Notes under the pieces: generated by a model
Told to the model about the DNA's origin: nothing
Database searches by the model: none
The model's input: the letters and a program-made list of their open reading frames with translations, nothing else
Part shown: positions 16,809 through 55,866 of the stretch, in pieces
Position numbering within the stretch: position 1 is the first letter of the stretch
Layout of the letters: every line of letters begins with the position of its first letter
Position numbers and translations under genes: made by a program
Assembly: GCF_044324785.1 (NCBI RefSeq)
Contig: NZ_CP172127.1
DNA from: Escherichia coli
GTDB taxonomy: Bacteria > Pseudomonadota > Gammaproteobacteria > Enterobacterales > Enterobacteriaceae
Direction: 5' to 3' (one strand)
DNA: 64,000 bases

Positions 16809-17935
16809 AGTGATATCCGATTATTTTTTAACGCTTCCAGAATGCGAGAGCATGCCTGACCATCACCATACGGGTTATGGGCGCGGCTCATAGTTTGATA
16901 TTCGTTTTCGTCTTTTAAAAGACGCGTCACTTCCTCGACAATTCGCTGCTTATCCGTGCCTACCAGACGCACCGTACCCGCCGTCACCGCTTCCGGACGC
17001 TCAGTGGTATCGCGCATCACCAGCACCGGTTTCCCCAGCGAAGGCGCTTCTTCCTGAATGCCGCCTGAGTCGGTCAAAATCAGCCAGGCGTGGTTCATCA
17101 GCCAGACAAACGGTAAATACTCCTGGGGATCGATCAGAATGACATTTTTCACATGCCCCAGAATGCGATTGACCGGCTCTCTGACGTTCGGGTTGAGATG
17201 CACCGGATAGACAATCTGGATGTCCTGGTGCGTGGTGGCGATGTCTGCCAGCGCATGGCAGATTTCTTCAAAGCCACGACCGAAGCTCTCACGCCTGTGA
17301 CCGGTCACCAGAATCATTTTTTTATTGGGGTCGATAAACGGGTAATTTGCCGCCAGTTCTGAACGCAGCGTATCGCTGCTCATCACCTGGTCACGCACCC
17401 ATAACAGTGCATCAATAACTGTATTACCGGTAATGAAGATTCGGCTGTCAGCAACATTTTCACGCAGCAAGTTTTGCCGGGAAGTTTCGGTTGGAGAGAA
17501 GTGATACATCGCCAGATGCCCGGTCAATGTACGGTTAGCCTCTTCCGGCCACGGCGAATAGAGATCGCCCGTGCGCAGACCAGCCTCAACGTGACCAACA
17601 GGAATACGCTGATAAAACGCCGCCAGGCTGGTTGCCAGCGTTGTAGTAGTATCGCCGTGAACCAGCACGACGTCTGGTTTGAACTCGGCAAGAATTGGTT
17701 TTAGCCCTTCCAGAATCCGACAGGTTATCTCTGTCAGGCCCTGTCCTGGCTGCATTATGTTGAGATCGTAGTCAGGTACAATGGAAAAGAGTTTCAGCAC
17801 CTGATCGAGCATCTCCCGATGCTGCGCAGTGACGCAAACTTTAGCCTCAAAAAAAGGATCTTTTGCCAACGCATGCACCAACGGAGCCATCTTGATGGCT
17901 TCCGGGCGCGTACCAAATACAGTCAGTACTTTCAC
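16805..17935 (-). CDS. wecB: UDP-N-acetylglucosamine 2-epimerase, 376 aa, GTG start
   Basis: ORF track begins 14 codons upstream; start set at GTG ([15 protein letters not shown]...) to match the recalled 376 aa. Confidence 0.88.
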
Positions 17936-46569: not shown

Positions 46570-47997
46570 ATGAGCGATAAAAAGAAGCGCAGTATGGCGG
46601 GTTTGCCGTGGATCGCGGCGATGGCCTTCTTCATGCAGGCACTTGATGCCACTATTCTGAATACCGCCTTACCCGCAATCGCTCATAGCCTTAATCGTTC
46701 TCCTCTCGCGATGCAATCAGCCATCATCAGTTATACGCTGACGGTGGCGATGCTTATTCCGGTAAGCGGATGGCTAGCCGATCGCTTCGGTACGCGTCGC
46801 ATTTTTACCCTTGCCGTGAGTCTGTTCACATTGGGTTCTCTGGCCTGCGCACTTTCTAATTCGCTACCACAGCTGGTTGTCTTCCGGGTTATTCAGGGGA
46901 TAGGCGGCGCAATGATGATGCCTGTTGCTCGGCTGGCCTTACTGCGCGCTTATCCTCGTAATGAACTTCTTCCAGTATTGAATTTTGTCGCCATGCCGGG
47001 TCTGGTGGGGCCAATTTTAGGCCCCGTTCTTGGCGGCGTGCTGGTCACCTGGGCAACCTGGCACTGGATATTTTTAATCAATATCCCCATAGGTATTGCG
47101 GGCCTTCTTTACGCGCGCAAACATATGCCCAATTTCACCACCGCACGACGCAGATTCGATATCACTGGCTTTTTGCTGTTTGGCCTCAGCCTTGTTCTCT
47201 TCTCAAGCGGAATAGAGCTATTCGGGGAAAAGATTGTCGCCAGCTGGATTGCCTTGACGGTAATTGTCACCAGCATCGGGTTACTGCTTCTCTATATTCT
47301 CCATGCACGACGCACGCCAAACCCATTAATTTCATTAGATTTATTTAAAACCCGCACTTTCTCGATCGGTATCGTAGGCAATATTGCAACCCGTCTGGGG
47401 ACCGGCTGTGTACCGTTCCTTATGCCATTGATGTTACAGGTAGGATTTGGTTATCAGGCGTTTATTGCCGGCTGTATGATGGCACCGACAGCGTTAGGTT
47501 CCATTATTGCAAAATCGATGGTTACCCAAGTCTTACGTCGTCTGGGCTATCGCCATACGTTAGTGGGGATCACGGTGATTATTGGGCTAATGATCGCTCA
47601 GTTCTCTTTGCAATCACCAGCAATGGCGATATGGATGCTGATCTTGCCGTTGTTTATATTAGGGATGGCTATGTCGACGCAATTTACCGCAATGAATACC
47701 ATCACACTTGCCGATCTGACCGATGACAACGCCAGCAGCGGTAACAGTGTTCTGGCGGTCACGCAGCAACTGTCTATCAGTTTAGGCGTTGCTGTAAGTG
47801 CGGCCGTCCTTCGCGTTTATGAAGGGATGGAAGGCACAACGACTGTCGAACAATTCCACTATACGTTTATCACGATGGGCATTATTACTGTTGCTTCAGC
47901 AGCAATGTTCATGCTTCTGAAAACAACCGATGGTAATAATTTGATCAAAAGACAGCGTAAATCTAAGCCGAACCGCGTTCCATCAGAATCGGAGTAA
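46570..47997 (+). CDS. hsrA: MFS-family efflux transporter HsrA (YieO), 475 aa
   Basis: 475 aa 14-TMS-type MFS ORF. Confidence 0.9.
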
Positions 47998-48955
47998 GTT
48001 GTAATCGTTGTTGCTGAAGGGTCGGTTGGGTTATCCGATGGATGAGTACATCAATCGCCAGCTCCCCTAGTTCATCTTTCGGTTGGTGGATAGTGGTTAA
48101 TGGTGGCGTCATAAAGCTTGCCAGTTCGATATCGTCATAGCCAATCACCGCGATATCCTGCGGAACTTGTAACTCTGCCTGATACAGCGCCTGGTAAACG
48201 CCAACAGCCATAGCGTCATTTCCGGTAAAGACGGCCTGAGGACGCAGCGGATGTAATAACAGTTGGCGCATAGCGTCAAACCCGCCGTTAAATTCAAAAT
48301 CACCAGTGACTTCATAGCCATCAGGAATGTTGAGACCCGCACGTTTCATCGCCGCCCGATAACCTTCCAACCGCAGGCGTGCCGGAGTTTTATCCAGCGG
48401 GCCGGTAATACAGGCGATACGGGTATGACCTTTATCGATCAGATATTGCGTTGCTAAGTCTCCGCCCAGCAACGAGTTATCCTGTATAAGATCGCTGTCG
48501 CCATCGAACGGAGCCCAGTCCATCATCACAGTAGGCACTGTCGGATAACGTTGCATGATTTCACGCGAAGGTTGATGCGTTTCGGTGCACAGTAACAGCA
48601 AGCCATCAACGCGTTTTTGCATCAGCGTTTCCAGATTGCGATTCATCCGCTGTTCATCGCCTTCGGTATTGCAAAGGACGAGACTATAACCGCGTTCGAA
48701 GCAGCTGCGTTCAACGCCACGCACCAGTTCTGAATAGAAAGGATTGGTACTGGCAGTGATCAACATGCCAATGGTATGTGTTTGATTGAGTTTGAGGCTA
48801 CGCGCCAGGGCTGATGGCGCGTAATTGAGTTCTTTAATCGCCGCTTCAACTTTGGCGGTAATCGCTTCACTGACGAAGCGATCTTTATTGATAACGTGAG
48901 AAACTGTTGAGGTAGAAACGCCCGCCAGGCGGGCAACATCTTTCATTGTAGCCAA
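47963..48955 (-). CDS. rbsR: Ribose operon repressor RbsR (LacI family), 330 aa
   Basis: N-terminal [23 protein letters not shown] helix-turn-helix; 3' end overlaps the hsrA 3' end by 35 bp. Confidence 0.93.
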
Positions 48956-51898: not shown

Positions 51899-53404
51899 TT
51901 ACTCCTGATTCACGCGATTAAGCTTGCCCACAGCGGCAGCCATTAACACTTCCTGGGTGGCCTGCTCACGAGTAAATTCCCCGCTGAGATGCCCTTCATG
52001 CATGACGATGATGCGATCGCTCATGCCTAATACTTCTGGCATCTCCGATGACACCAGAATGATGCTCAAGCCATCGGCTTTGAACTGGTTAATCAGTTGA
52101 TAGATCTCTTTTTTCGCGCCGACATCTACGCCACGGGTAGGCTCATCGAGGATCAACACTTTAGGGCGTGTCATTAGACCACGGGCAATCGCCACTTTTT
52201 GCTGATTGCCACCGGAAAGCAGACCAATTGCCTGTTCCATCGACGGCGTTTTCACATTAAACAGACGAATGAAATCACTCACTGCCTGCTGTTCATCGGC
52301 ATGCTTCAAACTGCCGCCAGTACGGCTAAAGTAACGCAGCGCAGTCAGCGACATATTCTCTTTTACTGACATGCCCAGCACTAAACCGTCACGTTTACGG
52401 TCTTCAGAGATATACACAATGCCGTTTGCCAGGCCATCCTGCGGTGAACGGGTAACGACTTCATGCCCATCCAGGGTGACGTAACCACTGGTGCGCGGCA
52501 GTGCGCCGTAGAGCACTTTCATCAGTTCGGTACGACCTGCGCCCATCAAACCAGAGACGCCAAGAATTTCGCCTTTGCGTAAAGTAAAAGAGACATCGTT
52601 AACGCCAGGTCCGCAGAGATTATCGACTTTCAGGCGAATATCTCCCGGCGCTTTGTCCAGGTGTGGATATTGATCTTCCAGCTTGCGGCCCACCATCATC
52701 TCAATCAGCGAATCTTCGGTCAGTGATGCTACTTCACGCTCAGCAATAAATTGCCCGTCACGAAAAACGGTAACGTCATCGCAAATCTCGAAGATTTCTT
52801 TCATGCGGTGGGAAATATAGACAATACCGCGGCCTTGCGATTTCAGCTCGCGGATGACGCGGAACAAGGATTCGGTTTCGGTATCGGTCAGCGCATCGGT
52901 CGGTTCATCCATAATGATGACTTTCGACTCAAAGCTCAGCACTTTGGCTATTTCAACCATTTGCTGGTCACCGATGGAAAGATCGCCCACCAGCTTGTCG
53001 CTTTTAAAGCGCAGGTTAAGTTTAGCCAGCAATTTATCCGCTTCGGCATACATGGTTTTCCAGTCAATTTTGCCAAAGCGATTAACAAACTCACGACCGA
53101 GGAAAATGTTTTCGGCAATGGTCAACTGCGGGATCAGGTTCAGTTCCTGATGGATAATCCCAATCCCGGCTTCCTGGGAAGATTTCGGCCCGGTAAACGT
53201 CGTTTCTTTCCCCAGCCATAAAAGCGTACCGGCATCGCGAGTATAGATACCCGTAAGCACTTTCATCATGGTGGATTTACCCGCACCGTTTTCGCCCACC
53301 AGCGCCATCACACGGCCCGGATAGACATTTAACGCTGCGCCCGAGAGGGCTTTTACGCCCGGGAAGGCTTTATCGATGCCTTTAAGCTGAAGTAATGCTT
53401 CCAT
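51899..53404 (-). CDS. rbsA: Ribose ABC transporter ATP-binding protein with duplicated ABC domains, 501 aa
   Basis: Two Walker A motifs (GENGAGKST and a second copy) in a 501 aa ORF. Confidence 0.93.
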
Positions 53405-53411
53405 GACGGCC

Positions 53412-53831
53412 TCAGAACGTCACGCCAGCACAGAGAATGATATTCGCATACGGAGAACATTCTCCGCTGCGAATTACCGCCTGACTTTCTGCGGTTTGTT
53501 GTTTGAATTGTTCATGCGTGGTGTAACGAATTTCAATGGTATTTCCCTGGTGTTGTTGCAGCTGCTCAAGGTGAGTGAGCAACGTTTCGTGGAGATGCGG
53601 ATTATGTTGTTTGATCTCTTCCGCGATAATGGCCGCCTCGACCTGCATTTCATTTGTGACGACGCCCAGCACCTGCATAAAAGAAGGTACACCCTGGGTT
53701 AATGCCATATCGATACGCGTTGTACTTTTGGGGATGGGTAAACCAGCATCACACACCACCAGCGTATCGGTATGTCCCAGACGGGAGATCACCGATGAAA
53801 TATCAGAATTAAGAACGGTGCCTTTTTTCAT
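53412..53831 (-). CDS. rbsD: D-ribose pyranase, 139 aa
   Basis: Start at [22 protein letters not shown]...; the ORF track adds 4 codons. Confidence 0.9.
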
Positions 53832-53842
53832 TTTTTTCTCCA

Positions 53843-53862
53843 TCAGCGAAACGTTTCGCTGA
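53843..53862. promoter_or_regulatory. Perfect 20-bp palindrome, candidate RbsR operator
   Basis: TCAGCGAAACGTTTCGCTGA is exactly self-complementary and lies 12 bp upstream of the rbsD start. Confidence 0.65.
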
Positions 53863-53955
53863 CCCGCAGTTTAATCCTGACTGAGTAGGGAAAACCATCG
53901 TGACGTTACGGAAATGTGATCAACCTCGAAACGTTTTACATGGTGATTAACCATG

Positions 53956-53991
53956 AAAACAAAAACGCCCCCTTATGGAGAAAGGAGGCGT
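53956..53991 (-). terminator. Candidate intrinsic terminator after kup
   Basis: Imperfect ACGCCTCC / GGGGGCGT stem followed on the minus strand by UUUUGUUUU. Confidence 0.4.
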
Positions 53992-53997
53992 CTGGCG

Positions 53998-55866
53998 TTA
54001 GATTTCGACCTGAGTACCCAGTTCGATAACCCTGTTTGGCGGGATTTCAAATTGATCCGGCGCACGCAGCGCATTACGTTGCAGCAGCAAGTACAGCTTG
54101 CCGCGCAGACGCAAATACCACGGGCGTTTGCCGAGGATCAACGACTCATGCGACATAAAGAAAGAGGTTTCCATCATCCGGCAACTTAATCCTTCCAGAC
54201 CGCAGCGGTGGAAAACTTCTTCCACGTTTGGCGTTTCTCGCCAACCATAACTTGCCACCACGCGCCAGAAAGTGGGCGACAGTTGTTCAATCTGTACCCG
54301 ACGGACGTTATGGACATAAGGCGCGTCTTCGGTGCGCAGAGTTAACAGAATCACCCGCTCATGCAATACCTTGTTATGTTTAAGGTTATGCATCAGCGCA
54401 AAGGGAATGACGTTGATTGCACGTGACATATACACCGCGGTCCCGGGCACGCGAACGGGCGGTGATTTCTCCAGCGAAGCAATCATCGCCTCCAGAGAGT
54501 TACCATGTTCATGCATCCGCCGCAGCAAACGGAAACGTTCGCTCTTCCAGGTGGTCATCACGATAAACATCACCGTACCGAGGCTCAATGGCAACCAGCC
54601 GCCGGAGAGCAGTTTATCGAGGTTAGCGGTGAACAATGGAATATCGACACAAAGGAAAGCAATCAGGATCAGCGCAACAAAATACTTATTCCAGTGCCAG
54701 TTCTGACGTGCCACGGTAGTCGAGAGAATAGACGTCAGCACCATGGTTCCGGTCACCGCAATCCCATACGCCGCCGCCAGGTTGCTGGAGTGCTCAAAGC
54801 TGACAATCACAATCACGACCGCGACATAGAGCATCCAGTTCACAAACGGAATATAGATTTGCCCTGACTCCATTTCGGAGGTGTGAATAATGCGCATCGG
54901 CGACAAATATCCCAGACGTACCGCCTGACGCGTCAATGAGAAGACGCCAGAGATAACCGCCTGCGAGGCAATTACCGTCGCCAGTGCGGCGATGATCAGC
55001 AGCGGGATCAGCGCCCAGTCCGGTGCCAACAGGAAGAACGGGTTCTTAATTGCTTCCGGGTTCTTTAACAACAGAGCGCCCTGACCGAAGTAATTAAGAG
55101 TTAAGGAAGGTAATACGACGGTGAACCACGCCAGGCGAATAGGGAACTTACCAAAGTGCCCCATATCAGCATACAGCGCCTCGACCCCCGTAATCGACAG
55201 CACCACTGCCCCTAATGCAATAAAAGAAACCGTTTTGTATTCAAGGAAGAAATGCACCGCCCACATCGGATTCAGCGCATGCAGCACTTCCGGGTTAGCA
55301 ATAATGCTACGTAACCCCAGTCCTGCCAGAATCAAAAACCAGGTCAGCATGATCGGCGCAAACAGCTTACCGACCATAGCCGTGCCATGTTTTTGAATCA
55401 TAAATAATAAAGTGAGAACGATAATTGAGAGGGGAACTATCCAGGTATCCAGCTGCGGGGCGACGATTTCCAGACCTTCAATGGCTGACATCACCGAAAT
55501 AGCGGGTGTTATGACGACTTCACCATAGAAAAAGCTGCCGCCGATTAGCCCCATAATCACCAGCATTGATGTGGTTCGCGCCGACGTATTACGCCCGGCA
55601 AGCGACATCAACGTCAGGATCCCCCCTTCACCGGCGTTATCTGCCCGCATCACGAAGGTGAGATATTTAATGGAAACCACAAAGATTAGCAGCCAGAAGA
55701 TCAGCGATAAAAAGCCAAACACGGCATCGCGTTCAACGCCAAAACCAAACTGGCCGGACAAACATTCACGAAGTGTATATAACGGGCTGGTACCAATATC
55801 GCCGTAGACAACTCCAATCGCCGCGAGGGTAATCGCGGGCAATGATTGCTTATTATCAGTGCTCAT
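53998..55866 (-). CDS. kup: Low-affinity potassium uptake protein Kup (TrkD), 622 aa
   Basis: 622 aa ORF with a 12-TMS N-terminal domain and cytoplasmic C-terminal domain. Confidence 0.93.

Follow-up and report, generated by a model that had tools for sequence, protein, structure and literature searches.

The RbsR operator upstream of rbsD in Escherichia coli and a conserved RbsR-like box overlapping a predicted CRP site

Repressor-operator systems related to rbs

The abstract of the 1992 study by Mauzy and Hermodson is said to describe the binding of RbsR to a region of perfect dyad symmetry that overlaps the transcription start. According to papers that cite Mauzy and Hermodson (1992) and Shimada et al. 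(2013), RbsR is the repressor of rbsDACBKR and ribose is the inducer. A 30-mer oligonucleotide termed rbsO, GTGGGTCAGCGAAACGTTTCGCTGATGGAG, has been crystallised with RbsR (2025 preprint, bioRxiv 10.1101/2025.04.02.646877), and in Serratia the region upstream of rbsD is reported in the literature to give a ribose-sensitive EMSA with RbsR. This E. coli rbsO/RbsR pair (Mauzy & Hermodson, 1992; PDB 9ny7/9ny8) is the closest described system to the locus analysed here, being the same element in the same kup-rbsDACBKR context.

Among other LacI-family proteins, PurR is the closest paralogue of RbsR and its best non-self match in the PDB (E = 3e-94), and some PurR-regulated genes carry two PurR sites (PMC3505978). 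The pur boxes, ACGCAAACGTTTGCGT, resemble rbsO in being 16-bp dyads with an AAACGTTT centre that are bound by a dimeric protein without a tetramerisation tail. However, the half-sites differ (GCAAAC for PurR, CGAAAC for RbsR), and, while PurR requires a corepressor, it is the ligand of RbsR that causes its release.

In the lac operon, O1 lies at +11, the CAP site at -61.5 and O3 at -82. The rbs control region is laid out similarly, with a strong operator just past the predicted start, a class I CRP site predicted at about -61.5 and a weaker operator-like site further upstream. It differs from lac in two respects: the LacI tetramer loops O1 to O3, whereas RbsR is a dimer whose core gave no looping in a chimera; and the upstream box of rbs overlaps the CRP site, with centres 10 bp apart, instead of flanking it. 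A second parallel is provided by CytR/CRP anti-activation and by the GalR/GalS operators that lie beside CRP sites, where a LacI-family repressor cancels activation, as we propose for rbs. CytR is a close paralogue of RbsR and binds jointly with CRP through protein-protein contacts, whereas the overlapping sites of rbs lead us to infer competition; to our knowledge, no contact between RbsR and CRP has been described.

The palindrome upstream of rbsD

The window, by which we mean the whole 64-kb stretch of E. coli DNA that was analysed, carries rbsD, rbsA, rbsC, rbsB, rbsK and rbsR in that order on the minus strand. The genes and signals around the operator are as follows.

53412-53831, minus strand: rbsD, D-ribose pyranase, 139 aa (NCBIfam equivalog NF008761, E = 3e-66), first gene of rbsDACBKR
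53838-53841, minus strand: GGAG Shine-Dalgarno sequence of rbsD, 6 nt before the ATG, read from the sequence
53843-53862, no strand assigned: rbsO, the primary RbsR operator, centred between 53852 and 53853; a unique, perfect repeat, 20/20 against the published oligonucleotide
53845-53860, no strand assigned: the 16-bp operator core AGCGAAACGTTTCGCT, the part kept across genera
53963-53993, minus strand: intrinsic terminator of kup, a 12-bp stem followed by a T run, and the upstream limit of the rbs control region
53998-55866, minus strand: kup, the open reading frame ending at 53998
47963-48955, minus strand: rbsR, the cognate LacI-family repressor, 330 aa (NCBIfam equivalog NF007743), last gene of the same operon

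The start of rbsD, with its ATG at 53831, is identical to that of K-12 b3748, and TGGAG at the Shine-Dalgarno sequence is kept in the alignment described below. The rbsR gene is complete and intact (695 bits for NF007743, against a cut-off of 531), and its product is matched by PDB 9ny7 and 9ny8, entered as 'Ribose operon repressor' (E = 4e-220 for 9ny7). A 701-bp stretch is found at 95% identity or more in 5411 of 5426 complete E. coli genomes, and its annotation there is always kup / rbsD / rbsA. We also note an in-frame minus-strand ATG at 53841-53843, within or abutting the palindrome and four codons before the annotated start, from which mechanical ORF calling gives an rbsD of 143 aa instead of 139 aa; since two of its bases complete the 20-bp palindrome, this ATG is confined to Escherichia.

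A preliminary description of the locus had reported an exact 20-bp palindrome at 53843-53862, directly upstream of rbsD, and had read it as a LacI-family operator for RbsR. All of this is borne out. The 20-mer TCAGCGAAACGTTTCGCTGA occurs at these coordinates and nowhere else in the 64-kb window, its inverted repeat is perfect over all 20 bp with no spacer, and it is the longest perfect palindrome of the window; when the same sequence was randomised 100 times under a first-order Markov model, 3 of the outcomes contained a perfect palindrome of at least 20 bp. A search of the window for further matches to TCAGCGAAACGTTTCGCTGA with up to three mismatches found none, where 0 are expected by chance. 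Second in length among the perfect palindromes of the window is the 16-bp CGTCTTTTAAAAGACG at 16909-16924, and a maximum of 16 bp is typical of randomised sequence. In the direction of rbs, on the minus strand, the region reads ...GATTAAACTGCGGG-TCAGCGAAACGTTTCGCTGA-T-GGAG-AAAAAA-ATG, so that 1 nt separates the palindrome from the Shine-Dalgarno sequence and 11 nt separate it from the ATG of rbsD. The element is dyad-symmetric around a central CG and carries RbsR-type half-sites, AGCGAAAC.

Comparison with the published operator settles its identity, the palindrome being the same as that of the rbsO co-crystallised with RbsR. The window is identical to the oligonucleotide at 29 of 30 positions, including all 20 bases of the palindrome, and the sole difference falls on the oligonucleotide's second base, outside the palindrome, where the window has C at 53866 and the crystallised rbsO has T. 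This is a flanking polymorphism: position 53866, 4 nt upstream of the operator, is commonly C or T, and K-12 has T. The palindrome is therefore the rbs operator already published as rbsO, an ordinary and known element.

Two conserved boxes and a CRP-like site in Enterobacteriaceae

To the primary operator the comparative analysis adds a second box and a CRP-like site, both upstream of a predicted promoter element.

53923-53942, minus strand: distal RbsR-like box, CATGTAAAACGTTTCGAGGT, centred between 53932 and 53933, about -71.5 from the predicted start
53912-53933, minus strand: CRP-like 22-mer, CGTTTCGAGGTTGATCACATTT, with core TTCGA-N6-TCACA, centred at 53922/53923, predicted -61.5
53868-53873, minus strand: predicted -10 hexamer TAAACT; this column reads TAAACT in 37 and TACACT in 30 of 82 sequences

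The comparison set comprised 82 sequences, namely 80 rbsD loci of distinct Enterobacteriaceae species, K-12 and the window. Seven are from Escherichia (K-12, the window and the loci of 5 fetched species, representing E. coli, E. albertii, E. whittamii and further Escherichia species) and 75 are from species of other genera. Since the query was the RbsD protein and not the operator, the set is unbiased toward carrying the operator; the protein search listed 120 matches, and all of those listed came from near relatives within the Enterobacteriaceae, none from more distant taxa such as Yersinia, Serratia or Vibrio. Each of the 82 sequences carries two AACGTT-centred boxes, located near -24 and -104 relative to the ATG, and the distance between them is 78 bp in 6 sequences, 79 bp in 46 and 80 bp in 30. 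The proximal core, AGCGAAACGTTTCGCT, is invariant (82/82) while its flanks vary, and the outer 2+2 bases that extend the palindrome to 20 bp are found only in Escherichia, the other genera ending in ...CGCTAG.

The distal box occupies the same position in 82/82 sequences. Among the 75 non-Escherichia species it reads GCGAAACGTTTCGA, in which 13 positions are invariant; in the fuller form, tTaGCGAAACGTTTCGAtGg, no species departs from it at positions 5-17 (75/75), 71/75 have G4, and the common variants agree with the ideal operator core at 15 of 16 positions. In 7/7 Escherichia sequences the box reads GTAAAACGTTTCGA, or ATGTAAAACGTTTCGA in the fuller form. By parsimony, the outer half-site would have changed from GCG to GTA in Escherichia, through two substitutions (C to T and G to A). 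Since the intergenic DNA flanking the boxes is highly variable among genera, the invariance of the distal box reflects selection in part; it also reflects shared ancestry, because all of the comparison genomes are Enterobacteriaceae. What the preliminary description had called half-site-like is thus a near-perfect RbsR-type box outside Escherichia; within that genus, however, its outer half has decayed, and the box overlaps a CRP-like site.

The upstream half of the CRP-like 22-mer forms this overlap, the centres of the two elements being 10 bp apart. Its core, TTCGA-N6-TCACA, in which the box supplies the TTCGA, differs from TGTGA-N6-TCACA by two mismatches, both in one half, a resemblance that is not significant alone. 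The distal box is immediately followed, on its downstream side, by four or five variable bases and then by GATCACA, which is invariant in 82/82 sequences and in 75/82 is placed 41 nt upstream of the -10 hexamer. At positions for which RbsR and CRP call for different consensus bases, 82/82 sequences have those of RbsR at 14 (T) and 15 (C) and that of CRP at 17 (A), as is expected of a composite element shared by RbsR and CRP. Although the CRP 22-mer does not extend over the GCGAAA part of the box, the non-Escherichia species keep that part invariant, and the Escherichia-specific changes are confined to the part of the box outside the 22-mer. Support for CRP control comes from the literature, in which rbsD promoter activity rises with cAMP and follows cAMP/CRP activity, and from RegulonDB, in which rbsD is listed as a CRP target.

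A strict consensus scan of the intergenic region found no sigma-70 promoter, as would be expected if transcription here depends on an activator. The hexamer conserved in the alignment was used as the -10 element; the operator begins 5 nt after it. With the start set 7 nt after the hexamer, transcription is predicted to begin near 53861 (+/- 2), on the operator's upstream edge, and on this prediction the CRP centre would lie at -61.5 (class I), the distal box at -71.5 and the operator centre at about +9.5. The interval from the CRP-like site to the -10 hexamer contains two further conserved minus-strand blocks, GTAACGTCA (53909-53901) and GATGGTTTT (53899-53891, roughly -35), both of which match the -35 consensus poorly. 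The predicted -35/-10 spacer contains a rare strain allele at 53887 (CCTACTC, against CCAACTC in K-12), and the exact 40-mer 53870-53909 is found in 21 of 5410 E. coli genomes.

Taken together, we consider it very probable that rbs is repressed by RbsR at rbsO and activated by CRP at about -61.5, and that the second site is an auxiliary box, overlapping the CRP site, that was weakened in Escherichia. RbsR binds the palindrome as a dimer, each AGCGAAAC half-site flanking the central CG being contacted by one headpiece. Because the operator extends from approximately the predicted start to 1 nt before the Shine-Dalgarno sequence, bound RbsR would block RNA polymerase. For RbsR binding to rbsO and for the response to ribose we draw on the literature, according to which RbsR binds DNA less tightly in the presence of ribose, so that the operon is released; the identity of the operator, the sequences and their conservation are observed here. 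cAMP-CRP, centred at about -61.5 in the geometry that we infer, would activate. Where the distal box is intact, as in the non-Escherichia species, RbsR would compete with CRP by occluding the upstream half of the CRP site, and repression would act at two points, on polymerase itself and through loss of the activator. With its box weakened, Escherichia probably has nothing there to oppose CRP, and repression would fall to the primary operator. As for how this arrangement arose, the alignment would fit an ancestor of the Enterobacteriaceae with two RbsR operators, one at the transcription start and the second fused to the upstream half of the CRP site, through which RbsR would both block polymerase and displace the activator; Escherichia would then have disabled the second by two substitutions outside the CRP site and in parallel extended the palindrome of the first from 16 to 20 bp; we regard the case for and against this history as evenly balanced.

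The distal box in E. coli and alternative readings

The preliminary description had noted a weaker second site at 53925-53936; the site does exist, being conserved and sharing a 10-mer with the operator, but its position was misplaced, since the sequence in question, CGAAACGTTTTA, lies at 53927-53938, with its central CG 80 bp from the centre of the operator. Of the two half-sites in the E. coli box, the inner one, CTCGAAAC, is intact whereas the outer one, TGTAAAAC, is degenerate; the box as a whole matches the 16-mer core at 11 of 16 positions, and the outer half-site does so at 5 of 8. Sites scoring 11 or 12/16 to the core number 42 in the window, where about 25 are expected. Support for the distal box is hence comparative, and in E. 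coli alone the box is statistically unremarkable. A third AACGTT-centred site, TGAGCAACGTTTCGTG, at 53576-53591 in the rbsD coding sequence, likewise scores 11/16 and is probably due to chance, given those 42 sites.

Such scores would suit a reading in which the second site of E. coli serves only as the upstream half of the CRP site, its likeness to an RbsR box being a relic that RbsR does not occupy in vivo. Two further observations point the same way: a single RbsR site is annotated for the rbs operon in E. coli (PMC3505978), and the substitutions peculiar to Escherichia fall exactly outside the CRP 22-mer. On the other side, the 10-mer CGAAACGTTT, consisting of the inner half-site and the central CG, is still exact, and it occurs in the window only at the operator and the distal box, against about 0.06 expected per strand in 64 kb. 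Of 5410 E. coli genomes, 5256 have the 40-mer that spans the box and the CRP-like site in identical form, although this within-species comparison is only partly informative, since the control 40-mer carries the rare allele of this strain. The region upstream of purH is reported as a secondary target of RbsR, which is said also to repress purHD, and the best match to the RbsR core there is 9/16, with an AAACGTTT centre, the score of the K-12 pur box GCGCAAACGTTTTCGT, which lies about 107 nt before the ATG and shares the AAACGTTT centre with rbsO but has PurR-type half-sites. On balance we lean slightly towards the distal box of E. coli being such a relic. This is compatible with the explanation that we prefer, repression at rbsO with activation by CRP and a weakened auxiliary box, from which it differs only on residual function; some weak binding of RbsR at the E. 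coli box may persist.

The distal box may also be partly catalogued already. RegPrecise gives 17 RbsR sites in 11 Enterobacteriales regulons, as regulog totals only and with no site sequences (PMC4052901), and 17 sites in 11 regulons are consistent with second sites having been predicted in some genomes. Our search of the literature found no usable report of a second RbsR site, no mapped rbsD transcription start and no RbsR ChIP or DAP-seq data; it likewise found no experiments on the distal box, nor any account of how the box overlaps the CRP site or has decayed in Escherichia.

That RbsR bound at both sites might loop the intervening 80 bp, or bind cooperatively, had also been raised in the preliminary description, by analogy with LacI at O1 and O3. 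The conservation of both boxes and the lac-like layout (operator just past the start, CAP at -61.5 and an auxiliary operator upstream) would agree with this. However, RbsR, at 330 aa, aligns to residues 5-310 of the 360 of LacI and lacks the C-terminal tetramerisation segment; a chimera joining LacI's DNA-binding domain to the RbsR core (LLhR) acted independently of operator spacing (PMC3505978); and the spacing of the boxes varies between species (78, 79 or 80 bp), 80 bp corresponding to about 7.6 helical turns, which puts the sites out of phase. Since the distal box overlaps the CRP site, RbsR bound there and CRP are expected to be mutually exclusive. We therefore consider looping between the sites very unlikely and do not retain that suggestion.

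5'-terminal stem-loops stabilise E. coli mRNAs, and the palindrome might conceivably act mainly at the RNA level, as an 8-bp hairpin at the 5' end, just ahead of the Shine-Dalgarno sequence, that governs how stable the mRNA is or how well it is translated, with protein binding secondary. The predicted start at the edge of the palindrome would place the hairpin suitably, and both the MFE and the centroid structures contain an 8-bp stem with a 4-nt loop. Such folding is, however, a by-product of any operator palindrome, the z-score of the 73-nt leader (-1.86) is unexceptional, the 82 sequences show no compensatory changes because the core never varies, Rfam has no family in 53300-54200, and direct binding of RbsR to DNA is documented (bioRxiv 10.1101/2025.04.02.646877), all of which makes a primarily RNA-level function highly improbable. 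A hairpin could add to mRNA stability, at most as an additional effect and not as the primary function. A terminator or attenuator is rejected, as no T run follows the palindrome on either strand and the terminator scan flags that of kup only.

The main feature is a textbook repressor-operator pair, already known as stated, and the distal box is a small comparative observation that introduces no new kind of system. What the comparison adds is that the 'weak half-site' is not noise but what remains of a composite element for RbsR and CRP that is strongly conserved. This suggests that Salmonella, Klebsiella, Citrobacter and Enterobacter repress the ribose genes by a mechanism different from that of E. 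coli, the model in which this was studied, with possible effects on ribose induction thresholds, on the catabolite hierarchy and on the use of rbsO/RbsR as synthetic-biology parts. If true, the two-operator ancestry would mean that a textbook sugar operon had been rewired in a small way that can be dated, perhaps partly catalogued among the RegPrecise predictions.

Lastly, a separate pairing was noted at the upstream limit of the control region. Positions 53835-53846 and 53972-53983 form a 12-nt inverted repeat that is 92% complementary, where about 0.1 such pairs are expected by chance. In rbs-sense RNA, the loop of the kup terminator, UUUCUCCAU, is complementary to the Shine-Dalgarno region of rbsD, AUGGAGAAA, and in transcripts reading through from kup it could mask the rbsD ribosome-binding site; in K-12 this pairing has one mismatch more than in the window.
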